From Podarcis vaucheri (taxonomy: Eukaryota): a stretch of 64,000 bases of DNA. Every line of letters starts with the position of its first letter. Position 1 is the stretch's first letter. The position numbers were made by a program, and so were the translations under genes. Positions 4,990 to 61,954 of the stretch are shown here, one piece after another. The notes under the pieces were generated by a model. That model was not told the origin of the DNA, searched no databases, and was given only the letters and a program-made list of their open reading frames with translations. Location of the stretch: NCBI GenBank assembly GCA_965113315.1, contig OZ220372.1; one strand, written 5' to 3'.

Positions 4990-5340
4990 GGGACGCGGGT
5001 GGCACTGTGGGTAAAACCTCAGTGCCTAGGGCTTGCCGATCGCATGGTTGGCGGGGTGAGCTTCCGTCTTTCGGTCCCAGCTCCTGCCCACCTAGCAGTT
5101 CGAAAGCACCCTTAAGTGCAAGTAGATAAATAGGTACCACTTTCTAGCGGGAAGGTAAACGGTGTTTCTGTGCACTGCGCTGGTACTGGCTCGCCAGAGA
5201 AGCTTCGTCACGCTGGCCACGTGACCCGGAAGTGTCTGTGGACAGTGCTGGCCCCCGGCCTCTTAAGTGAAATGGGCGCACAACCCTAGAGTCGGACACG
5301 ACTGGCCCGTACGGGCAGGGGTACCTTTACCTTTACCTTT
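4990..5340 (+). mobile_element. Sauria SINE, near full length
   Basis: 5' gggacgcgggtggc tRNA-like head, body gtgcaagtagataaataggtacc, 3' (ACCTTT)n tail; TSD ATTCAGACTGA at 4979-4989 and 5341-5351. Confidence 0.92.
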
Positions 5341-5691: not shown

Positions 5692-8291
5692 GGACAGCTA
5701 CTGCAGGTCTGCAGGGCCAAGCTGCTTCCTGCTAATCATGAGTGAGAGGAATAATAATGCCTAAGCTGACGTTTGCTCTTCCTCAGTTCCATAGGTGGCT
5801 GATGGTGCAATCCTACACATTTCTACTCAAAAGTCCCACTGAATTCAGTGGTCTGGCTCCTAAGTAAGTGGGTACAGGGCTGCAGTTGGAGGCTTTTCTA
5901 TTTCCTGACCATTATGTAGCTATCAGGGCCAGTGGATTTTTGCTGTGGTCCATGAATTGGAGAGATGAGGCCTGCCTCTGATGTGGGCAAAGGCAAGAGA
6001 TGTCCTTGATTTTCTGCAAGGAGTTTTGTTCTCCTTTGGCAAATGTTGACCCCAGTCATATTTTTGGGTAAACTGATCCAATTTAAAAGTCTCTGTTCAA
6101 GAGATTTTTTGCCTTTCTATGTGGTTCAGATCTAAGGCAGAAGGATTTTAACTAACTGTCTAATCTGAATTTAAACCTTAACATCCTTTTTATGTTCTCT
6201 GTGCAGCAGAGTCATTGTAAATGACTTTTAGTGTTGTCTCCTCACAACTTAGCATTAAATTCTGAAGAATACCTTGTGCATTCTCCTGATTTCAGTATGC
6301 GGACTCTTAAGAAAACCTCTTTTTGTTCAAGAGTGCATGTTGGGTGATGGAAATCATGTGCTTGAGAAAGCTTCATCATCATTCTAAAGTGCTAGAACTC
6401 GGCTGATGTTCTCTGGGTGGCTTTTAGCGTATCCGTTTAATAGCTGTCAAACATCTAATACATCTGAAGCAGCATTTGTGGGAAAGTGCTACTAGAAGCC
6501 CAGTGCACTGGCATGGCAATCTCTGTGGGTTACCACAAATTGGGATGAATATAATTAATGCATTGTTTGAAAGTAGTGATGCTTATGATTAGGGGAGAGA
6601 AAGTGCAGTGTTCTCAACGCTGCTGTTCATACCTTCCTCTCTTGGAAAAGCAGGCAAGGAGTGCCATTACAGTAAACTGGCACTGTGATTATGTGCTTGG
6701 TTTCCATTTGGCATCTTCAAAGCCTTTATTTCTAAAATGTGTTCTGCTGCCTAGCCCAAAGGTTATATAGCTTGACAATAAAGCACAATTGATCCATGCA
6801 AAAGGTTCAGTAACAGTTATGCATCTCCAGGGAGGAGGGGAAAATGCCTGTTTTGACCGGCAGCCACTCTCCCAGGTGTGAGGTGTGGGCTACCCATGAC
6901 CCTCTAGGTGTTTCTGGACTTCAGCTTCCATCATTCCTGACCACTAGCCATACTGGGTGGGAATGATGGGACTTGGATGGAGCCCAAGAACATCTCTACC
7001 CAAAGGCCACAGCTTCAGCTCCCCTGCTGTAAATATTACTGAGTTAGATGGGCCCAAAGTCTCAATTTAAGGCAGCTTCTTATTTCCTAGTGTTTCTGAA
7101 GAACCCCAGAATTTTTTTAAAAGATAAAACATGCCAAAATGCAAAACGTAAAAAGGTAAAAATTAAACACTCGTGCACAGAACCATTACAGTTAAGCAGT
7201 AATCTAGTAAGACCAGTACATTTTATAAAAAACATGTAAAAATCTGCTAAAACCAAGCACTACCACATCAGTTCAAATACCTGCCTAACCTGAGGATTTT
7301 AAAAACGCTTTCTAAAGGTCAAGAGGGGTTTAGCCTTATGAGGCTTGACAGATAGAAGGTTCTACTGATGCTCAGGCAGTTTTAAAAGGTTCGGTCAAAT
7401 GTTAAGGTTTTGATTTGTTAGAACAGCAAAAACACTTTAATCATAAAAACAAAATGTTTTGTTTTGTTTTGGCTGCTGCTATGAAGATTTTTGTTGTGAA
7501 ATAATGAAGTCAACTTAACTAATGTTATTATTTTTTAAAAAAAGTTTTTATCTTTGGGTGTCATTCTGAAACTCCATTGTCAGCTTACAGTTGCAAAACT
7601 AAAACTAATTATTTTAAACAAATTAATATAGATGGTGAAATTTTGCTTTATTTCTACTAAACTGTTGCAGGGTAAGGGGTAAGCAGTCATTACAACTGCC
7701 CTTGATGGCAAGGACGCCTTAATGAGTGGCAGTGAGTTGACTCAGATGGCAGGGCACTTTATTCAGCAAATAGGTGGAGGTGCTCCTTAAGTAACCTTGA
7801 AACAATCTGCCTTGAACTACAGTGAAGGAGGGATGGTCTGCACTAGTAAACAAAGAATGTATCAACTGATACCCATTCTAAAGTTTAATGAGATGTCGGG
7901 GTACAAATCTGCTCTAATATTCTGCAGTTTTATTTTCCTCTTTTTTAAAAAACAAAAACAAAACTGCAACAAAAACACACTTTGTTCTGGTGCCATGAGT
8001 AAGAACCTAGTATTTCAGTTTGATAGCATGCTTCTCTGCAGTTAATAGGATTGTGGGGGGTCTTTTGATCTTGAAAACTTGATCTCATCACTTATTGTTA
8101 CACATTAAACATGCTAAAGAAAATGCGTGCAGATGGTTTCCAGGAGACAAGATTGCTTGCTTCTTCGGGGAGTATGTGTTCTTGTTGTTGAGGAATGAAA
8201 TAGAACTTATCTAGGCCCTTGAAAGACTGTTCGTTGAAAGAGCTCTTTTGGGGGATGGTATATTAAATGCTGTTTTCTTTTTCACTCGCAG

Positions 8292-8516
8292 GGTAACCAG
8301 GAGCCGACAGCCACTCCTGACACGATGGTCCAGCCATTCACAACAATCCCATTCCCACCTCCCCCACAGAATGGGATCCCCACAGAGTATGGCGTACCCC
8401 ACACTCAGGACTATGCAGGCCAGACCAGCGAGCACAATCTGACAATCTATGGGAGTACACAGGCGCACGGAGAACAGAACACGAACACAGCCACCACACA
8501 GAATGGATCTCTTACG
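8292..8516 (+). CDS. RBFOX2: RBFOX2 coding exon (first common exon, 225 nt, phase 0-0)
   Basis: tttttcactcgcag|GGTAACCAG...CTTACG|gtatgc. Translates GNQEPTATPDTMVQPFTTIPFPPPPQNGIPTEYGVPHTQDYAGQTSEHNLTIYGSTQAHGEQNTNTATTQNGSLT, near-identical to the vertebrate RBFOX2 N-terminus (ORF 8325..8573). Confidence 0.97.
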
Positions 8517-27116: not shown

Positions 27117-27263
27117 CAGACAGAAGGAGGGGCACAGACGGATGGCCAGCCGTCACAGACACAAAGCAATGAGAGTACCGAGAGCAAATCTACTCCAAAG
27201 CGGCTGCATGTCTCCAACATTCCCTTCCGCTTTCGGGATCCTGATCTCCGGCAGATGTTTGGG
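27117..27263 (+). CDS. RBFOX2: RBFOX2 coding exon, start of RRM (RNP2); NAGNAG acceptor gives start 27117 or 27120
   Basis: U-rich tract then ttgcag|cag|ACAGAAGGA...TTTGGG|gtatgt. Translates (Q)[48 protein letters not shown]. Confidence 0.97.
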
Positions 27264-36303: not shown

Positions 36304-36357
36304 CAATTTGGCAAAATCCTTGATGTAGAGATAATCTTTAATGAACGTGGCTCCAAG
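36304..36357 (+). CDS. RBFOX2: RBFOX2 RRM exon (54 nt, phase 0-0)
   Basis: tctgtctttacag|CAATTTGGC...TCCAAG|gtaagt. Translates QFGKILDVEIIFNERGSK. Confidence 0.97.
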
Positions 36358-40858: not shown

Positions 40859-43360
40859 ATCTCTCTCTGATCCCCCCCCCAAGAAATAGTGGTGGTGAAA
40901 TTGTAAACGGTGAAGTTAACAACTGCTTTCTTTGAACAAACTACTGCTGTTAAGCGTAATCATCTCAGCCAGAACTGTTCTGCACTTAATCTCCATCGGA
41001 ACTCACTGTTTAACAATTCCACCTTCCACAGTTCGTATGTGTTACCTGTAAATCAGGATAAAGCTTTTTGCATCTGATGAGTGGATCGTAGTCCACAAAA
41101 TCTTATAGCAGGGATTTATTTATTCCCCTTGTTTCATAAAATTTATACACTGCTTGACTCTAAAATTAAACACTCAAAGCGGCTTAGAAAAAAAGCTAAA
41201 ACAATAGCATTATCAATAAGAAAAATGAACAACTATAGTTTAAAACTTTCAAAAAGTTAAAATAACAACGGACTAAAAAGCGATTAAAACTTCCATCAAC
41301 CACGGTGCCCTTGAGGGCTTTCATTGACGCCCTTGGGCAGGTTACCCAATCTCTGAACTTGTATTTAAAAAGAAGTGTCTAGTTCTCCTAGAAATAAAGT
41401 TTCTAAAGAAGTAAAAAAATATGCAGGCACCTCCTAAGCGATTTCTGTGAGAAGAGAATGTGTGTGATGTGGCCATCTTGTACATTTTCCTGGTACTAAG
41501 GAATGATCCCAGTTGTTATTAGACAGCAACACCCTTGTGAGTGAGTGTGAGTTCCACAATCAGGGCATATCTGACTTCTTATGTCAGGGGTGGGGAGTTT
41601 TCCTTATTTTGTGCTGTGGCATGCCCCCTTGCCAGCCATTTTTTGACTGGGGCCCTCAGTACTCCCCAAATTCAAAATGTGCCCACTGTTCCAAAAAGGT
41701 TGGTGACTCCTGGCTTATAACATTAAAAATGTGTTGGTCTTTATAGTGCTACAAGACGCTATGGATTTTGCTGCAACAGACTATGCCCCTGAAATAAATA
41801 CGGTGAAGTTCTGCTTCCCTCACTTGCAGATTTCAGTTGTGTTCTGCATTAGCAGAAGCATTTTTCTTTGATTTTGCAGTATTCACATGTTATCTTGCTT
41901 TAAGCTGATGCAACTCTGTCAAGCCCCAGTGTGTTTCAGAATTTTTTCCACTCTAATGAAATAGCTTTAAAGCAGCACGTAATTCAATCAGTGCAATGCA
42001 GTATTAGATGGGAGTTCCAGTCTTTTCACTGCAGATCTTGGAAAGTAGGATGCTTACTTTAAATGGCAGTAGGGTTTCCTTTTCTTCCCCTCAACCAATC
42101 ACTCATGCCAATCACTCATCTCAGATGGATTATCAAGGATGGCTAAAGATGCATATAAGTTTTGGAAGCAAGTAACCCTAATGCCTGGAATCTTTTTGAC
42201 TATTTATCCAGGCTTCTGGCTGTTGACTGAGTCTTTAAAGTGTGTCTGTGTATATATAGATATATTTTAAAAATGAAATTATGGAAAATCCGTCCCAACA
42301 CCATAAGATAAAGATGCTGCTTCTGAGGTGAATGTTCTAAACATAATAAAAAAGGGTTAACAATGCATGAGTTTCCAGGGGCTCCGTTTAGTTTTCTTTG
42401 GTTTTTGTTTATTTTTGTTTATTTTTGGTTTTATTATTATTTTTTCTTAATTTCTGTGTTCTGGCCACACCCAGGAGAATCGTCTGCTTTTGATTTCTCC
42501 CTTTACGGTTACATGGTAAATTTTCTTTCTCATTCTTCAGAGATGGAAACATTTTTAAAAACTCTGTATAATTATTATTTTTTTACACTGCTCATCCTGT
42601 TGCTTGTTATTTATTGCAGAATCTGAGGCCAGACTAAAAGGGTGATGGTTACTTGGGTGTCTTTTGGGTCCTTGAACAGCTCCTTAAAGAAAATGGGGTG
42701 TCCCTGGGCTACAGGTGGTTTCAGGTCATATGAGATATTTCTTTATGAGCATTTAATAATCTACAGTTGCATTAGTTGGATAATTTTCAGGCAGTAATAA
42801 TAAAAAGTAAAAAGCAAGTGTTGTTAAAAAACAGGAAAAAACCCACGCACAGACAACTGAACTTTAAAATTGGTAGCAAAGCCAATCAAAAATAGGTTTG
42901 TAGTAATACTTTGTAATATTATATAGCTTTGTGGATGCATAGTTGCTGCTTTCCTTCAACTTAACATTTTCTGTGATGTACATGGGCAATCTTCACCCAA
43001 TAAAGGCATGCATTTATTTTACTAATTGAGATGTCCTTCAAACATCACAAAATATCAGTTCTAAAGAAACTTATTCATGCTTATGGACAGATATTTTATG
43101 CTGTTTGGTGTTGTTGTTTTGTTTTCTTTAAAGCACAAACTAATAACAAATTAAAACAATTGCAGTGAAAAAAGTTTGTAAATGTGACAGATGTGTATGT
43201 ACATCTGTTTATAATATGTGATTCCTGCCCCTCCTCCAAGGACTCAGGAACCCATTCATTGGACTATTCTGTTGGAGAAGATTATCTCATTGTGTAGATA
43301 ATAGTGTTCTGTTGTGAACCACCTTGAGATCTTTGGGTATAGGATGGCATACTAACTATA

Positions 43361-43407
43361 AACTAAACTAAACTAAACTAAACTAAACTAAACTAAACTA
43401 AAAACTA
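43361..43407. repeat. (AAACT)n microsatellite
   Basis: Direct inspection. Confidence 0.93.
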
Positions 43408-44244
43408 ATTGTATTCCTTAAGTTCCTAGTGTATGTGTGTTTGGCCAGATAGCTCATCTGGAACACAGAGATTAGATTTCCTCCCTCCAGCTAGCATATC
43501 CAATACACTCTCATCTTCTTAGCAAAAGCAAGTTCCCCAACAAGCAGCAATTTTTGTTTTGAAGGAAATCAGTCTGTTTTCCTAGTAGGATGGAATGTGA
43601 CTGGGGAAGCACTAGAGCAGAAGTAGGCTTTCTGAGAGCAGCCTCCAAGGGGCTGCTTTTGGGGGGTGGGGAACAGAATTGCCCAAGAAGGTAGAGTTGC
43701 AATTGCCAGCCACAGAACAGCTTCAGAATTGACCACATATCTGTCTGGGGCCGAGAGGGCAGGATAATGGGGGGAAGCAGCTGTCAGCACCCTCAGCCCT
43801 AACACCTTCAAAACATTGCATGAAATTTGGGGTTTGCATGTCTGGATAAGCCCTTTTGAGAAGAATTTGCTTAAATATCCAGTAATAATATTTTTGCTGG
43901 AGAATCCAGTGACCCAGTTTAATTTATCAACTGATTAAAAAAAATATCTTTATCCCTTCCTTCCCATGAATAAGCTTCCCATTGAACTCTACAAATACAG
44001 GGCAGGAAACCCAGCTGTGAAGCAAAAATAGAGAAATCCTTCACACAGTTGCCGCAGGAATGGTGAAAGGCTTGAGCCCTAGCAGGTTCTCATTATAGCA
44101 TCTTCAAGAGCACTTTAAAATGATGACCCACTTGCTACTTAGTGAAAAATTAAAATGGCTCTCTAGCCACTGCATCTCATGTTTCATGTAAAGCCAAGGT
44201 AGATTTCCCCCTCAAACTAAGTGTAAGTGTACTACTCCGCCTAA

Positions 44245-44331
44245 ACAGTCCTGGACAAGTCTACTCAGAAGTAAATCCAGTTGTGTTAAGTGGGACTTAC
44301 TTCCAGGTAAGTGTGTACAGGATTGCAGCCT
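44245..44331. mobile_element. Short palindromic interspersed repeat (MITE-like)
   Basis: tcct..aca..tctactcagaagtaa...ttacttccaggtaagtgtgtacaggattgcagcc; related copies at about 5805-5885 and 33385-33445. Confidence 0.5.
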
Positions 44332-45117
44332 TCATTACCTAGGTTCCTGTTTCAGTATCAGCAGTTTCCATTATAGTTGACATATACTTTGTCCTTCCTG
44401 TTTCTGGGGTGAAAGAACTCGAAAAGATTAACTACTACAGTGTTTGAAATGTGGCTGTAAAACTGCCACAACGATATTTTATCTAGCCATGGGCTAAGCC
44501 AAATGTCTACATTCTTGTGAATGGAACAACTAATGCTCAGACCACACTGCTGAAGCTAAATGGACAATTCCTGGAGAGGAGACCAGTGGGATCCTCACCT
44601 ACTTCTGAGTTTTCTAAAGGAAAGTAAGCTATAAATAAATCAATGATTTCAGCTACTATTTAGATGTTATCATTTTCTACTAGCTTCTCATTAAATTAAT
44701 TTAGTCTTCCTAGCTTAGTCCCTGTGAAAGTGTTGTTCAGCCCCATTAATGAGTATCAGAAGTTTAGAAAATGGTCTGCTTTGTGACCGAAACATGGAAA
44801 GAAGTGGATTAGGTGAAAGAAAGTTAAGCTGTCCTGTGCTAAATTAGGTGGCTACCCAGTTCTTCAGATCAGTCCCAAGCCTCTGTGCTCTTTCCCATGT
44901 AATAGATTCTTTCCCCTCAGATTTAGTAGTTGCCCACTTAATGATGATATATGCATATACTGCAGCATTTCTTTAAACAATGTTCATTTTACAACTAAAT
45001 GTAAGGGTTTTGCATCAGGAAAAGGAAATGTAAAGCTTGGACCGAAAAGATAAACGGATCAATTGTGTAGCAAGATTTCTACCATGTCCAGTTGCTCTAC
45101 CATTATTGGAGCATATA

Positions 45118-45333
45118 CAGTGGTACCTTGGTTGCCGAACTTAATCCGTTTTGGGAGCCCCGAAACCGTTCGGAAACCAAGGCGCAGCTTCCATTTGGCT
45201 GCAGGAGCTTCCTGCGCTCAATTGGAAGCTACGTCGAACGTTCGGCTTCCGAAAAATGTTCGCAAACCGGATCACTGACTTTTGGGTTTGCAGTGTTCAG
45301 GAGCCAAACTGTTCAAGTACCAAGGTACCACTG
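45118..45333. mobile_element. Tc1/mariner MITE of a related subfamily
   Basis: TA|cagtggtaccttgg ... ccaaggtaccactg|TA; perfect 14-bp TIRs, CpG-rich interior. Confidence 0.88.
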
Positions 45334-45359
45334 TATAGTGTAAAGACTTACAGTGTGTG

Positions 45360-45392
<33 letters not shown>

Positions 45393-45786
45393 GGTAATCA
45401 ATAAAAGACGAGTCCAAAACTGCAATTTCTCCAGAGCTGCTGCAAAGGGTGTGACTTTCTTGCACAGCATTAAACTGTTGGACCACACTCCCTTTTTGTA
45501 GTGGCTTGTTCAAAGCACCTGCATGTGTGTATCCTTGCCATAAACAGGCAACTACTGAAAATGTTGTAGAGTCATGCCTTTGTAAGGTTCCGCATGGCAA
45601 GAGGATTTCCAACTAGGATTTAATAAATTTTGTTCCGTCAAACTAGGAGCTAGTTTACTTTTCAAAATTTGTCTCGAGTAACTGTACTTTTTTTGGTCTG
45701 GCCTCAATTGCTTTATGTTTGTTATTATTTTAAATCTGATTACAACTTTTTTTTATTAAAAAAAATTAAATTTATTTCATGAAACA

Positions 45787-45792
45787 TGCATG
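45787..45792 (+). promoter_or_regulatory. RBFOX-binding element TGCATG upstream of the inferred RRM cassette exon
   Basis: Exact hexamer about 90 nt before the gap, with a second at 45520. The upstream position is the established repressive position used in RBFOX autoregulation. Confidence 0.6.
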
Positions 45793-45881
45793 AACCAAAA
45801 ATGTGACTCTAGGAGAGTATTGCTAAGTTGTGCTGATGTCAATTTCATACTGTGATATTTTTTTTCTCTATTTATCTAGAT

Positions 45882-46053
45882 NNNNNNNNNNNNNNNNNNN
45901 NNNNNNNNNNNNNNNNNNNNNNNNNNNNNNNNNNNNNNNNNNNNNNNNNNNNNNNNNNNNNNNNNNNNNNNNNNNNNNNNNNNNNNNNNNNNNNNNNNNN
46001 NNNNNNNNNNNNNNNNNNNNNNNNNNNNNNNNNNNNNNNNNNNNNNNNNNNNN
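45882..46053. other. N-run (172 nt), probable location of the missing 93-nt autoregulated RRM exon (GFGFVTFE...GRKIE)
   Basis: No sequence encoding the RNP1-containing exon was found between 36358 and 48703. The gap is preceded by TGCATG (45787) and a pyrimidine tract. The gap is seen directly; its content is inferred. Confidence 0.75.
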
Positions 46054-46882
46054 AATTTCTTCTTTATATTTATTCTTTTGTTTCTTTTTTTGTGTCTTGC
46101 CTCACTTATTTCACATTTGGATTCCTGTCTTGTGTGTGCGTGTGCGTGTGTTTGTGTCTCTGTGTTTTTCACTCCCCTGCCCCCCTGCACTGAGGTGTAT
46201 AAAAATAACACACCCACCGAAATATATATCTATATATGTTTTGTTACTTTAGGTATTTTTCTTTTTCTCCTTTCTCTTAAGTTTGTTTCCAACCCACTCC
46301 AAATTTTTGACCTTCTGCTGTCTTGATTTTCCTTTGCTTCAGTTTATGAGGCTCCGACTTTTTATTGCCAATCCTGATCAAAACTAACGAAAAGAGCACT
46401 GTCCAATTTGTAACTTTTGTGTCTTAACAACAAAGAAGGGGGCCAGCCAGAATCTGCCCTTTTCCTCAGAGGCCAGTTCTCCTTCATATGAGTGTGACAT
46501 TACATTAATTGCAGGAAGGGATTGACAACACAGGAAGAAACTTCCTTGGGCTGCTAGAATAATTTTTTCTGGAGATGATTTCAGTAAGTAAATACACACT
46601 CAAAATTAGCTCTTACAATGTGCACAGAGTTTGATAAATGTGAATAGTTGTTAACCACGTGGGAAGTAACTGATTAATCAGTGGGGAGAAAAATATATTC
46701 CCTCATATTGAAGGCTAACTGGCCCCTTTCTCTTTTCCCTCCCTTTTTAAGAGAAAAAAGTACGAAATATAGGGGGGGAAACTTAAAGCCGCCGTTTTGA
46801 GTAAGATGTCTGCATATTTTGCTTTTTTGTTTTGTTTTTTTGTTTTGTTTTTGTTGTTTTATTTCCCTTTTCAATGGTTTAG

Positions 46883-46956
46883 TGTTTAGGGCCCTTCACT
46901 TGACTCACTCTTTCCATGGTAACTATACACAATGCTGGCGATGGTACGAGTTGGCG
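46883..46956 (+). other. Candidate PTC-containing (poison) cassette exon of RBFOX2; acceptors at 46883 or 46890
   Basis: About 60-nt U tract, tandem tttag|tgtttag| acceptors, consensus donor GCG|gtaagt, and in-frame stops from both acceptors (TGA 46901, TAA 46920). Confidence 0.55.
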
Positions 46957-48703
46957 GTAAGTGAAACAAAAGTGCTAGAGGAGAAGCTTATTTCTTTTCT
47001 TTTTTTTAATGCAAAACAAAATTAAGAAAGAAAAAAATCCATCTGCCATTTCACATTAACACTACAAAATGTGATTTGACTTGTTGTCCCCCCCCCTTTC
47101 CTTTTCCCCTTCCCACCCCAACCCACCCACCCCTTTTTATTTTCAATGCTGTTGAGTAATGCCGCCTGGACTTTGGATGTACATACCGTTTTGTATAAGT
47201 CTGAGCTGTTTGATTACTGACTTCCTGGTGATTTCCCTTGCACATCTTACTCAGAGTTACTGAACTCCAGTTTGGCTGGTTTTTATTAATGCACCCATAC
47301 CCTTCCCCTCTCTATTCTCTCCCTGCCCCCTTTTTCTTTTCTTGCTCTGCCTCTCTCCAAACCTGTGATTGTTTTTCATTTTTCCTTTCTCCCCTTGCCA
47401 TTTTTTTCTTCTTCACTCAGTTAAATGCAGCTGTTGGTCTCTCTTTGCTGACTGGTGGTTTCTGATTGGTTTTGGCCATTTTTCCTTTAAGTGCTTGTAT
47501 TGCACTCTGCTGTAGCAGCTGATTTCAGGCACTCGCTCCATCTTAATGATTGTCTGTGAGACCTCTCCTCTCTCTCTCCCCCTCCCTAGCCCCATTAATC
47601 GATTGTTGTTGTTGTTGTTTTTCTTTTTTTATGTGTGTTTTAACAGCATGCTCTCAGTCTCATCGTTGTTGTTTCCCATTCTTTTTAAATGTATGATGTT
47701 TATACTGTTTGGGGGCTGAAATTAGAGTAATGGGTTTCCAGGCTCCCTTCTTCCCTGCCCGAGCTCACTCTTCTGTTAAACGTCAGAGGGCATCTAAGAC
47801 TCCATCTTGAGATCGGCCTTGTGGCTTTTCCTTCTGTTACGGCTTAGGATTTCGAAATGTCACTGATTCTAGCTCAGCCTTCACCCTCTTTGCAAGAGCT
47901 CTGAGGCTGTGTCTGACACGGGGCTGCAGTAATTTGGCTTTGCCCACCGCTCCCATGTTTTTCCAGCACCATTTCTGCTGTAACACACACTTGCTGCAAT
48001 GCTTAGAAGGCTTGGGGCTATAAAGAGCTCAGAAATGAGGGTGAGTGCACTACGAAATCAGGAGACACCTTATCGGTTTCTAAATGGTGTTTGTTTTTTT
48101 GTCCTCCTCTCAAAAGTCAGCAATTGGAGATGGGTGCGCCAATATCTCAGGATATCCTGAAACTGGGATGTAGGCCAGGCAGCCTTGCTTTAGGAATCCA
48201 GAGGGAATTAGTCCAAGGCACCTGGGATATCCAAGCTCTCCTTCCGCCTGAATAGATGTCTCCTCTGTAATATTAGTAGGCCACTGCAGTTCAGTGAAAG
48301 GCTACTAAAATATGAGACAGAAGGCTACTAAAATATGAGACAAAGTTGTTTTTGTTCATTACTTCATACCAGTAAAGCTGGACGTGGAGAAAATAGCAAT
48401 AGGGGGAGTTTTTGCCCTTTGGATCAGTGAGCATCAAATGCCCAGTTCAGTCAAAGGTAGCAGGGATGCCTGAGAAAATGTGCTCTTTTTGGCCTTTTCT
48501 TGAATGCCAGAATTAAAATGCCAGAATTAGATTGGTTTGCAATTTTAATATTTAATTTAATGGCAACCTGCAAAAGTAAAATTAAATGTGCTAAATTTTT
48601 AAACAAATTTAAAAAAAACAAAAACACACACAAGTTTTCACCATTTTCTCTAAAGTCCTGTGCTTCCTCCCCTCTTCCCCCCTTTCCTCCTTTTTACTTT
48701 TAG

Positions 48704-48764
48704 GTTAATAATGCCACTGCCCGTGTGATGACTAATAAGAAGATGGTCACACCGTATGCAAACG
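48704..48764 (+). CDS. RBFOX2: RBFOX2 coding exon (end of RRM, 61 nt)
   Basis: ctttttacttttag|GTTAATAAT...GCAAACG|gtaagg. Translates VNNATARVMTNKKMVTPYAN(G). Confidence 0.97.
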
Positions 48765-51700
48765 GTAAGGGGAAATTCTGCTAATAATAAACAAGGTTTA
48801 TGGGGGAAGAGCTAAGCTATTGGGACTGTTCTTCCTTCCCTGGATTTCAGCATAATAGAAAGCTTTGTTGGAAGAATAGCATCTTCAAAATCTTTTGTGA
48901 CTGGTGTGTATAAACACTGAAGTAAGATGCCTGTTTTTCAAAGGGTAAGAGAGTACCCAACAGCTATTATTTAATGGTATTAGAATTTGTTTTGAGCAAG
49001 GAAACTTAATGTTAAATATAGATTAACAAGTCAAACTGTAGGGAATAACGAAAACTTTGCCCTTGCCATTCCCTGGTAAATTAGTGAGAAATGATCAACA
49101 TGAAAAGTTCCATCACTGCTTTTAGAATGGGGAGGTATTTAAAAAGTGGACCCAATATTTAATAGTGGGAAAGGATGCGGACAAGGAAAGGGCCTAACAA
49201 ATACACATGCAGATCTGTAATTCAAAATAAAAATATTTCTCTTCCCTTATCCCTCATACAGACCTTTCCACAAAGACCTTGGGAGAAATCATAAAATGCT
49301 AGGTTAGAAGGGTGAAGTCCAGTTTTGTCTGTCCTAGCAAGGTTTACAAAACCCACAAAGAAGGAACTTGCCCGTTGACTGCCAGTCTCTTTGTGTGAAT
49401 TAACCTTTCCTATAATGCTCTTATTTGACCATGTCTGTGTTACACAAAAGCTCATTGCCAAATACTGTACCTGAACAACATTTGATAATGGCAGTGCACC
49501 TGTTTCAGCACTTGCCGTTTAACTATACTAATTCTCAAGAGATGGTATGAAATGAAACACATGAACTTTGATCTTCCTGAAAATAATTGGTGTTGACCTA
49601 GAAGTCCATAGTACAACAGCCACTATAAAAGCACTTGTAGGTGGCTAAAACAAAACTGGAGGCAAAAAGGTCCAAATTCTCAGCCTCGCTGTCTCCTAAA
49701 AGTAGCTCTTGGTCTGGCTTAGTCACCATTAAGCTCAATCACCATTAAGTGAGAAATGCTAGTTACTAATTTGGGTTGAATAACAGCATGTTTTAAACAA
49801 GGTTCATTGAGAAGGGTATATTTGCTAAATCTGTATGCTGTCTGGTTGGATAGGGATGGTGTTTGTGTTTTTCACAGAATTGTAAAAGCTGAGTTTTCAT
49901 GCAGCTGTACATTGTCTACCCACATGCTTGTGCTAAGCCCTTAGTCATATTAGCTTTCTTGTTGTGACAGCACAGAGGCTTTGTTCCAAAGGTGTGCTAT
50001 ATATTATAATGCATTGCACTGGCATGTTAATTAGTTATGCTGAGATGATATAGCTGCATACCCCTGCCAGTAGCCTAATATAAATTCTCAAGAATGGCAG
50101 ATCTTTGAAGTGTAAGTAACTTTATCAAGTAATAAAAATGGAATCTTGTAAAAAACTACAGTGAAATAGGGATTACTTAGGAAATATGCCTTTGTGGATC
50201 AGTTATACGTTCTCAAATGGCATTGCAAGCACCCCCAAGTTAAAAATAAAACAATGATTTTGTGCATGTGCACATATAACTATTTATGATCTATATAAGA
50301 AAGCCAGTTCCCCACATTCATCATTCTTATTTCATTACATAAAGGGGACGGAGGGGATGGACCCAAAGCAAGACTCTGCAGATGAAAAGTTAGGGCTGGC
50401 TCACTTCTCACTGGTTCTCATTTAAATCCTATGAGACAAAGTAAATGGGCTGCAATCTGAAGTACAGCTTCTCCCATGTAAAGTAGTGGCGGCCATACAG
50501 TGTGTCACTTGGAGGCAAAGAAACCCTAACAGCAGGTCTTTACAGATAGGAACTACAGAGAAGCAGCCAGAACCTGCAAAGGCCATTGGCTTGTGTGCTC
50601 CGTCCTTTCGCTACACTGGTTAATGGGAGAAAGGACAGATGGCACTAGCATTCTGCACTTACATATTGAACTAGAAGCGATTGGGGTAGGAGCTCAGATG
50701 TGTTTACTGCAAATGCTCTTGTATTCATAGGAAGGCTGCCTCACACTTTGTGAACCATAGACAGAACTGTGTTCTACCTGCACTAAAAAGAAATTTGCCC
50801 CCCCCGCCCCGCCCCGCATCTAATATTGCTATAAGGAACTACTTTGTACTGAGCTAGACTGGTAATGGCTCTCTGAGCTCAGCACAAGCTTTTTTCCTCC
50901 AGCTGTGTTACCTGCTAAGAATTTTTAATTGGCAATATCAAGGATGAGTCATGATTGTAGTTCATGTCCTCCAATACGGAGCCACAGCTCCTCCCCACAA
51001 GGATGTACAAGAATTCCCTCGCATTGAATTCAATCATTGGTCCATCCAGTATAGTACTGTTTACATTGAATAGTAGCAGTTCTTCAAGTCTTTGGCTGAG
51101 AGCTTTCTTGATGTTAAATATGTAACATTAGTGCCCTTTATTATACAGGTGTGGCCCCTCAATGGTAGCAGTATGGGACTGTGTGGGTTACTGATATATT
51201 CCCCTCCTGGCCTCTAGCATTACATAATAAATCTACTAATCTAGTATAAAAACCAGCCAGACTCCAAATTCAAATTTGTACTACTATGTGTACTGCACAT
51301 GGTTTGCACAGCTCTGACCCATAAGTTTTCATTCAGTTTATAGGAACATAGTGAGTTAGCAGCTGAACTCTGCTACATTATTTTGTAGAATGCTTTTTGA
51401 CTTTGCTTTTCGTTGGGTAAATATTTAAAAATGCCATTGCAGAGATATTTTCAGACCCACAAATTCAGAAAAAAAAGTTGAAGAAAAGAACATATATAAT
51501 AATTAGAATAATAGAATCGTAGAGTTGGAAGGGACCACGAGGGTCATCTAGTCCAACCCCCCGTGAGGCAGGAATCGTTTGTCCAACATGGGGCTGAAAC
51601 ACATGACCCTGCCTGAGCCATGAATTGTACTTGGGCATTATGTTCTTGGTTGGTTTGTGTCAGCCCATTTTGACCTGATCAGTCCATGGTTTGTGTGTTG

Positions 51701-54137: not shown

Positions 54138-54191
54138 GTTGGAAGCTGAGCCCTGTGGTTGGAGCAGTGTATGGCCCTGAATTATATGCAG
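54138..54191 (+). CDS. RBFOX2: RBFOX2 coding exon (54 nt, phase 1-1)
   Basis: ttattctttcag|GTTGGAAG...TATGCAG|gtagaa. Translates (G)WKLSPVVGAVYGPELYA. Confidence 0.96.
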
Positions 54192-54311: not shown

Positions 54312-54404
54312 CATCCAGTTTTCAAGCAGATGTCTCGCTGGGCAATGACGCTGCAGTGCCCCTGTCAGGAAGGGGGGGTATTAACACTTACATTCCTTTA
54401 ATCA
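54312..54404 (+). CDS. RBFOX2: RBFOX2 coding exon (93 nt, phase 1-1)
   Basis: aattag|CATCCAGT...TTAATCA|gtaagt. Translates (A)SSFQADVSLGNDAAVPLSGRGGINTYIPLI, diagnostic of RBFOX2 rather than RBFOX1/3. Confidence 0.96.
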
Positions 54405-55530: not shown

Positions 55531-55663
55531 TTCCCGGCTTCCCTTACCCAACTGCAGCCACCACAGCAGCCGCATTCAGGGGAGCTCATCTGAGGGGCCG
55601 AGGGCGGACAGTGTATGGCGCAGTGAGAGCAGTACCTCCAACAGCCATCCCAGCTTACCCAGG
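55531..55663 (+). CDS. RBFOX2: RBFOX2 coding exon (133 nt, Ala/Gly/Tyr-rich C-terminal region)
   Basis: ctgtcttcacag|TTCCCGGC...CCAGG|gtaagg. Translates (I)[43 protein letters not shown](G). Confidence 0.96.
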
Positions 55664-59356: not shown

Positions 59357-59531
59357 NNNNNNNNNNNNNNNNNNNNNNNNNNNNNNNNNNNNNNNNNNNN
59401 NNNNNNNNNNNNNNNNNNNNNNNNNNNNNNNNNNNNNNNNNNNNNNNNNNNNNNNNNNNNNNNNNNNNNNNNNNNNNNNNNNNNNNNNNNNNNNNNNNNN
59501 NNNNNNNNNNNNNNNNNNNNNNNNNNNNNNN
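59357..59531. other. N-run (175 nt), probable location of the missing 40-nt B40 exon (VVYQDGFYGADLY)
   Basis: B40 normally lies between the 133-nt exon and M43 but is not found in the visible sequence. The gap is preceded by TGCATG at 59243 and a non-repetitive pyrimidine-rich flank. Content is inferred. Confidence 0.65.
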
Positions 59532-61954
59532 CCCCAACCCCCCTGATAAGCCAGCCTTTTTTTTGTTATTGTTGTTGTTGTTGATGTTTTTAGTTTGTTT
59601 TTCAAATATAATTTACTTTGATTTTCTTCTTCCTTGTGGATATATACATTTATATATTTAAGAATGCAAGCATGTTTCTCTGTCACTGCACTTGCCCCTG
59701 GGTGCAAGACCTGCTGTGCCTCTAGGTTTTCTAACCGTTGCCAGGGTCAATTTACAAGGTTGAGTGTCCTCTTCACACAGGTACGGTATATGCTGCTAAT
59801 CAACCTGAGAGATGATTACCAAATTAAAACTTCTTGTCTGTGCATTTCCGATTGGCATAATTTCAACCCTAAAATAAAAAATGAATAGATAACAGGATTG
59901 ATTTGGCCTCAGATCTTTCCTTTCCATCACTTCTTTTACATTCCCCTCTTGGGACCTTTCGAAGGTTTTATTGATGTAGGGGGCCTAGAGAACTCAAGGT
60001 TTACAAAGCCTACACAGTGTAGAAATGTGAATGTTAAGCCTTCTTAGAAAATGTTTGCCCTTGACCAGTATCAGGGCAACTTAAAGGTAGCACATTGCTC
60101 CTTCGTTCCCTGAATATAATGGTACCTTCTGGCCCATAGTTTGTTCTCTGTAGTTCCCCTGAGCAAAAGTGCTAGGTAAAAGTTTATCATCCTACTGTAC
60201 CTCTTGAAACTTTTCACTACCTATGTGATGTCTTGCATTCCCATGTGATTCAAGAAGCCAGCCTGATCCACAGAATTTCTTGGACTCTGATTTACATGTC
60301 CATCTCAGGCAAAGCTCAAAGATAACTTGGCTCATAAACAGAATAACTAGGGGCGTACTTCCTTTCTCTCTCACTCACTTTATAAGAGAGGTTAAAATAA
60401 TCTCCCCATATGCATCTGCTGACAATAAAACTTAGCCCAGTATCACCCACTTTGTATTAATTTGAATAGTGGCAACAGATGTACAGCTTTGATGTCACGG
60501 AGACCTTGTATTTAGGACAGGAGAATGTCATATTTTTCCTACTAAAGAAAATAGCCTCATTTTTAAAATCATGTCATTGTTTAAATGTATCCCTTGGTGA
60601 TGGATGGGGCAGCCTTCAGTTGCTTCTGGTCAACTTCCTAAGGAGACATTTGTCCTGCGTAGGCTAGCTACAGCAAGTACACTCTGGCTAAACATAGAAA
60701 ATCCTATTTTGATGGTGATTTTTCAACATCACTTACTTGTGGATCTTATGTACGCATTGCTTCCTACCTTGGCCAGATTCTGTTATATGTAATTTGTGTA
60801 GAAATTCAAAAGGATGACCCTGGGTTTCCACTAGCACTCCTAAATTGCTGTCACATACAGAGGAGACAGCTGGATACTAGTCATTCAGTGAGGAGACAAG
60901 CAAATGAATAGCATCTTTTGCTTAGCATCATCCCTTGCACAGCCAGAGATGCGAATGACAAGAAAGGTGTCAGGTGTGGTAATTTCCCCACTCTTGTTGA
61001 AAGGTTCCCCCCCCCCAGCCTGACTTGTTTTTGGCAGGCAGCTATTTTAGCAGTATATAGAATCTGCACGCCTCTTTTTATTGCATAGTACCCTTGGCAC
61101 TGAAATATCCCTGAGGCCTAAAATGGCATTGATGGGTCATTTAGCTATAGACAATGTAGATTCCATACTTTTGTGGGGTTGAGGAAGAGAACAGAAGTAG
61201 AGTAAATGAAGTCTCTCAAGGTAGATTAACCAAGCTTTTCCCATTGCTTTTCATTGCCAGCTGAACTGAAATGTATGGCTACATCTCAGTCATATCTTCT
61301 GAGCAATCTGCTTTCTGCTGTCTTAATTGGCATGAATCAAAACGAGTGCTGTTTACTTTTAACAACTTGCTAGCTATTCATTTTCCTGCCTCTGGGAAAA
61401 TAGCTATTGTAAGGGGAATGGCGAGGGTATCAGTGTTGCGTGGCTGTTCTAGGAAGGTAGTGAAGGAAACCTTTTTGGACACTGGACTGCAAAGTCACCT
61501 CCGTGAAGTTTAGATGGTGGCAACAAACTGAAGAAGGAAGAGAGGGGATAACAAAGGCAGAGAAGAGCAAATAGAGAAAACTGGCTTCTCATTCTGATCC
61601 CAAATTTTACTGTCCTTTTTCTGTTCTCCTCTCCCTTTTTTCCCTCTGAGGCAATCATCCTGCTTAGCTACTTTGTTTTCATGATAAAGGCTATGCCACA
61701 AGGTTTATTGCTTTCTGGCATTAAAAATGCAGGTAACTAGCCCCAGGGTGCAGAGGATAGGTATAAGAAGTAACAGCTTCCATTAGCATTGGTTTACTTT
61801 GCAAGAGCAGCTGACTTAAAAGGCCAACCGTATATATGAAAAGCGTGCTTGCATCCTCTGGAAAGAAAAGGCTGGTAAGCCCTTTGGGCTTTTTGTGTGA
61901 TTGTTTCCTTCCACAGCTGTGTTTTTGAACTGCTCTTCCTGTGTTCTGTTATAG

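Follow-up and report, generated by a model that had tools for sequence, protein, structure and literature searches.

A candidate lizard orthologue of the cryptic, NMD-linked exon 6* of RBFOX2

Does the RBFOX2 gene of a lizard carry, in the intron behind its 93-nt RRM exon, the cryptic exon that RBFOX3 promotes in mammalian cells? The question is raised by a U-rich acceptor and a nearby donor that a first-pass annotation had read as a poison exon in the stretch of DNA analysed here (64,000 nt, hereafter the window). [quoted passage not shown] Inclusion of either exon shifts the frame and leads to two stops in exon 7, and the resulting mRNAs accumulate under emetine with RBFOX3 overexpression; emetine alone did not raise the isoform in mouse cells, where RBFOX3 overexpression was required (PMC3126832). 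Baseline inclusion of exon 6* was only 2% in human control cells, and the nuclear and cytoplasmic RBFOX3 isoforms gave equal exon 6 skipping but differing 6* inclusion (PMC3126832). A 2026 review repeats the RBFOX3–exon 6* result. The human lengths are given as 41 nt for exon 5a, 93 nt for exon 6, 74 nt for exon 6a and 61 nt for exon 7 in Table S1 of PMC10123112, which enters the stop position of exons 5a and 6a as ‘downstream’; in hg19, exon 6a occupies chr22:36163415-36163488 and exon 5a chr22:36168978-36169018. The two sources disagree about the junctions, which are 5-6*-7 in PMC3126832 and 6-6a-8 in the table.

That RBFOX proteins promote cryptic PTC exons in mouse Rbfox2, as the first-pass annotation had stated, agrees with this literature, except that the exon is not a mouse peculiarity and was shown in human cells too (PMC3126832). 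Amniote-wide conservation, which the annotation had offered as a new inference, is already in print, because the same paper states that the cryptic exons are conserved in mammals and birds, which bracket the amniotes. Since the exon is known and its mammal-to-bird conservation published, a lizard copy is expected and would be a confirmation that brings no new mechanism. No report of RBFOX2 alternative splicing in a squamate was found in the literature searched, most subscription journals lying outside it, and 16 nt of the exon, searched for as text, matched no paper.

The exons of the host gene were mapped by motif search and tblastn and are numbered after the cited papers:

8292–8516, + strand: 225-nt upstream coding exon, from which the gene was placed
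27117–27263, + strand: exon 4 (147 nt), in which the RRM begins
36304–36357, + strand: exon 5 (54 nt, RRM), ending in phase 0
45882–46053, no strand: run of 172 N, expected site of the 93-nt RRM exon 6, with spacing that fits human
48704–48764, + strand: exon 7 (61 nt, as in human), with TGA TGA at 48726 and 48729 in the shifted frame
54138–54191, + strand: exon 8 (54 nt), downstream junction for NMD
54312–54404, + strand: exon 9 (93 nt), missing from several named isoforms
55531–55663, + strand: exon 10 (133 nt), downstream junction for NMD

Judged from these coding exons, the gene is squamate RBFOX2, as the annotation had it. The best solved-structure (PDB) match of exon 4 is RBM9/RBFOX2. 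Among the best 120 of 1029 protein matches, the 75 residues of the upstream coding exon match lacertid, anguid, varanid and python RBFOX2 at 100% identity, with identities of 95% in crocodilians, 93% in turtles and 91–92% in birds; the 14 named proteins in this set that match at least six of the seven exons exactly are all lacertid. The host gene thus falls with RBFOX2 rather than with RBFOX1 or RBFOX3.

Neither motif search nor tblastn found the 93-nt exon 6 in the readable DNA of the window. Between exons 5 and 7, 31 residues are present in 66 of the 113 named proteins (best 120 of 1029 matches) and none in 46, in which exon 6 is skipped, the end of exon 5 being absent in the remaining one; the exon-6-skipped form of RBFOX2 is annotated in reptiles and birds. 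Phase 0 had been claimed for both upstream RRM exons. For exon 5 it can be read directly, and for exon 6, presumably within the N-run, it follows from the 31 residues seen in the majority of relatives.

Several other features of the gene may be recorded here. The N-runs at 45882–46053 and 59357–59531 sit where the coding sequence of relatives misses in tblastn (exon 6 and the stretch after exon 10, respectively). The DNA at 59559–59722 matches, at 95–97% and in two frames, the C-terminus of a Zootoca vivipara RBFOX2 isoform (P0006), which is probably a read-through end in the Zootoca vivipara annotation. Exon 4 has a tandem CAG CAG acceptor at 27117–27120 that could yield isoforms one residue apart. 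Located 5' of the first mapped exon are CpG clusters at 5037–5299 and a very U-rich acceptor at 5698, possibly marking an alternative first or cryptic exon.

The candidate lies between the N-run and exon 7, and consists of the following elements:

46817–46882, + strand: U-rich tract and 3' splice site, AG-free for 75 nt, with a branch-point-like TTTAT whose A is at 46861 (-22)
46883–46956, + strand: candidate exon 6* (74 nt), frame-shifting, with a phase-0 TGA inside at 46901; proposed from splice sites, human length and spacing
46890–46956, + strand: putative alternative form (67 nt) via a second AG, with a phase-0 TAA at 46920
46957–46962, + strand: 5' splice site GTAAGT, second of the 148 GTs in 46054–48670

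What the annotation had read from the letters is present. The U-rich tract, put at about 60 nt, has 47 T per 66 nt; the two AGs, 7 nt apart, are at 46881 and 46888 and define the 74-nt and 67-nt forms; the donor GCG/GTAAGT spans 46956/46957; and the phase-0 stops of the two forms are where they were said to be. The three CpGs near the 3' end of the exon are at 46939, 46947 and 46955, a mild excess, as 4.6% of 74-nt windows have at least three. The U tract consists of degenerate tandem copies of a TTTTG-type unit.

Searches for other kinds of element were negative, with no Rfam match and no tRNA in the whole 64,000-nt window. The predicted structure of 46780–47020 is not unusual (z = -0.49). 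Among the 25 longest of 151 inverted-repeat pairs in 42200–48800, most join U-rich with A-rich tracts, and none convincingly brings a UGCAUG to the candidate exon. Folding also predicts a short hairpin at 46781–46803, directly 5' of the U tract, in a region that is otherwise without unusual structure.

The candidate agrees with exon 6* in size and place. The 74, 41 and 61 nt found here for the candidate, its partner in the preceding intron (see below) and exon 7 equal the human lengths of exons 6a, 5a and 7. A length of 74 or 71 nt, leaving a remainder of two on division by three, is shared by the 74-nt form and not by the 67-nt form; the mouse exon, at 71 nt, is shorter than the lizard candidate. 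From exon 5 to exon 7 there are 12346 nt, compared with 12541 in human, and from the end of the candidate to exon 7 there are 1747 nt, compared with 1884. If exon 6 is within the N-run, 829–908 nt separate it from the candidate (815 in human). The intron bounded by the 93-nt RRM exon and the 61-nt exon 7 would then hold the candidate in its 5' third, at 0.31–0.33 of its length against 0.29 in human.

The partner candidate is in intron 5:

42386–42474, + strand: U-rich tract before candidate exon 5*, like that before 6* (family D1)
42475–42515, + strand: candidate exon 5* (41 nt, the published 5* length), open in phase 0, frame-shifting

This exon, which supplies the 41-nt partner that an orthologue of 6* should have in the preceding intron, ranks best among 31 AG–GT pairs of 41 nt and is likely, on its sequence features, to be the orthologue of exon 5*. 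It lies at 0.64 of its intron, compared with 0.52 in human, and a tandem AG would give a 38-nt variant from 42478. A TGCATG is found nearby, at 42364.

Because length, intron position and frame match, we consider it highly probable that cryptic exon 6* of RBFOX2 has its squamate orthologue in 46883–46956, paired with exon 5* at 42475–42515; the annotation's claim of a squamate counterpart is supported. The lizard and human arrangements share the gene, the introns, the lengths of 41 and 74 nt, similar spacing and a +2 frameshift onto the exon 7 stops. They differ in that the lizard candidate has a phase-0 TGA within the exon, whereas the stops of published 6* are listed as downstream. In addition, the lizard candidate has a second AG 7 nt inside, and none is reported for exon 6* in the published descriptions.

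The splice sites themselves were scored with a rough weight matrix of splice-site frequencies. By this rough measure the donor at 46957 scores 5.8, ranking second of 148 GTs in the stretch from the N-run to exon 7, and the acceptors are weak, at 0.4 (46883) and 0.2 (46890), compared with 2.8–10.7 for six of the seven coding-exon acceptors and -6.1 for the remaining one. The candidate AG–GT pair as a whole scores 6.2 and ranks 15th of 1163. A different 74-nt pair, 47967–48040, ranks third with 11.0 by the same rough matrix, and one might propose that this is the true orthologue of 6* and that 46883–46956 is a pseudo-exon arising by chance downstream of a TTTTG microsatellite, as the repetitive nature of its U tract would allow. 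Set against this, 47967–48040 lies 663 nt before exon 7, at 0.72–0.73 of the intron (1884 nt and 0.29 in human), and the 60 nt that precede it have just 19 T. We rejected it on intron position, and consider the proposal very improbable. The peptide of 47967–48040 gave one 5-mer match to an insect protein, which we took as chance.

Where 46883–46956 stands out is in U content. The 60 nt before the AG of 46883 have the highest U content among the 4383 AGs of the 64-kb window. A rule that selects, intron by intron, the AG whose preceding 60 nt are richest in T, and then its best donor 30–200 nt away, returns exons of 41 nt and 74 nt; these lengths have base rates of 5 in 598 AGs and 4 in 134 AGs, ∼2.5e-4 jointly, a figure to be read in the light of the rule having been chosen after the candidates were seen and of an outcome that depends on window size. 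With a 40-nt window the 46883 AG ties for first place and the 42475 AG drops to a tie at places 4–6; with a 90-nt window the 46890 AG is slightly ahead of the 46883 AG and ranks first.

What would inclusion of these exons do to the reading frame? Two bases carried into exon 7 lead to exactly two stops, TGA TGA at 48726 and 48729, matching the published description (PMC3126832), and this frame is entered after an insert of 74, 71 or 41 nt. In candidate 6* the earlier TGA at 46901 would act ahead of them. It is 53 nt from its own donor, with 114, 168 nt and more to later junctions, so that a later junction lies beyond the 50–55 nt expected of a poison exon; the several downstream junctions that the annotation invoked are supplied by exons 7–10, which follow the candidate. 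The stops inside the exon, which it had taken as evidence for a poison exon, are at chance level and carry little weight, because 14032 of 19621 random 72-nt intron stretches (72%) contain one in frame; they are also unnecessary, because either shifted frame meets a stop in exon 7. From these features, 46883–46956 is very probably the lizard orthologue of the known RBFOX3-promoted NMD exon. Poison exons of SR and hnRNP genes (PMC3967051, PMC6547761) likewise add a premature stop through a conserved exon in a splicing-factor gene; unlike those cassettes, exon 6* has been described as a target of cross-regulation, included under the paralogue RBFOX3 together with skipping of exon 6, and not as a simple cassette activated by the product of its own gene.

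The two AGs raise the possibility that both acceptors are used, with selection keeping an in-frame stop in each product. Both AGs are preceded by T (TAG), lie behind one tract and score similarly, a stop is present in both forms, and the second AG is the one that leads with the 90-nt window. We nevertheless think this doubtful. The stops are expected by chance, as above, and scanning from the candidate branch point favours the first AG. The 46883 site is likely to be the main acceptor, because it is the first AG after the branch-point-like A at 46861 and fits the human length. Published lengths point the same way: the relevant passages of PMC3126832 report no lengths other than 74 nt in human and 71 nt in mouse, and the human position that lies 7 nt into exon 6a does not occur in the curated Table S1 file of PMC10123112. 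The second acceptor of the annotation is thus present as an AG, without a counterpart in those parts of the two sources.

The peptides of the candidate exons occur in none of the 113 named proteins among the best 120 of 1029 matches (7 left out) and in none of 66 proteins among the short matches (46 of 112 left out). As products of NMD-targeted mRNAs they are expected to be absent from named proteins, and the result neither supports nor harms the assignment. We also considered 14 short RBFOX2 proteins as possible products of 5* or 6*; they resemble read-through past exon 5 or fragments.

Finally, how might RBFOX proteins act on exon 6*? The relevant motif in the lizard intron lies on the other side of exon 6:

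45787–45792, + strand: TGCATG (RBFOX motif), just 5' of expected exon 6

A second TGCATG, at 45520, is also 5' of expected exon 6. A motif upstream of an exon is on the repressive side, according to the rule quoted in PMC3575530. In readable 46054–47645 there is no (T)GCATG, the nearest GCATG, at 47646, being ∼690 nt 3' of the candidate. Direct activation by RBFOX through a (U)GCAUG in the near downstream intron therefore lacks its motif in candidate 6*. Because none is readable near the exon, the simpler reading is that the effect of RBFOX on 6* is probably indirect and comes from the blocking of exon 6.

The sequence of events we envisage in the lizard would begin with high RBFOX protein, as in neurons, binding UGCAUG 5' of exon 6 and blocking that exon. 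Exon 5, thereby freed, could join exon 7 in frame, giving a dominant-negative protein without an intact RRM, or could be spliced to 5* or 6*, whose acceptors are U-rich and weak. In the latter case inclusion of 74 or 41 nt would shift the frame, translation would stop at TGA 46901 (6*) or at the exon 7 TGA TGA (5*), and, these stops lying more than 55 nt before later junctions, NMD would remove the mRNA. Skipping of the 93-nt RRM exon by RBFOX proteins is known to yield a dominant-negative protein (Damianov and Black, 2010, as described in citing passages). It shares its locus and regulators with 6* and is the form annotated in 46 of the 113 named proteins of reptiles and birds (best 120 of 1029 matches); it stays in frame and makes protein, whereas exon 6* would destroy the mRNA.

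The same lack of (U)GCAUG in 46054–47645 would also suit a region that is orthologous to 6* and hardly spliced in this lineage, being an intronic regulator of exon 6 or decaying. The weak acceptor scores agree with such a reading, as do the second AG and the in-exon stop, both unreported in mammals in the sources cited, and the 2% baseline inclusion in human control cells (PMC3126832). We judge it improbable, given the exact human length, the intact GTAAGT, the most U-rich acceptor in 64 kb and a partner candidate 5* that is intact too.

The preferred reading, an orthologue of 6* that is spliced, can be taken a step further, as a speculation that we advance with little confidence. Exons 5* and 6* may be paired decoy acceptors, having unusually long AG-free U tracts and no UGCAUG close downstream; the role of RBFOX would be limited to blocking exon 6, and another factor, one that binds U tracts, would decide between the dominant-negative protein and NMD. 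Lizard 6* may then have gained a stop and a second acceptor, destroying every product. If true, this would explain why the RBFOX3 isoforms cause equal exon 6 skipping but unequal 6* inclusion. The U-rich acceptor design common to both exons, without an RBFOX motif nearby, is the one useful lead.

If the exons are spliced as predicted, squamates join mammals and birds in having a two-exon NMD brake on RBFOX2, with exon lengths, spacing and the exon 7 frame trap kept across amniotes. This would strengthen an effect that has been seen mainly under overexpression in cell lines.

Further features were observed in the introns on either side of expected exon 6. The GCATG at 47646 is the sole one of the readable intron, which also contains a long pyrimidine-rich stretch at 47270–47431, AG-free for 148–158 nt. 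In intron 5, a donor of full consensus, CAG/GTAAGT, at 44307–44312 has no good acceptor in range. A small element at 45114–45337 has perfect 19-nt terminal inverted repeats and a CpG cluster, and is presumably akin to a MITE of the Tc1/mariner type.
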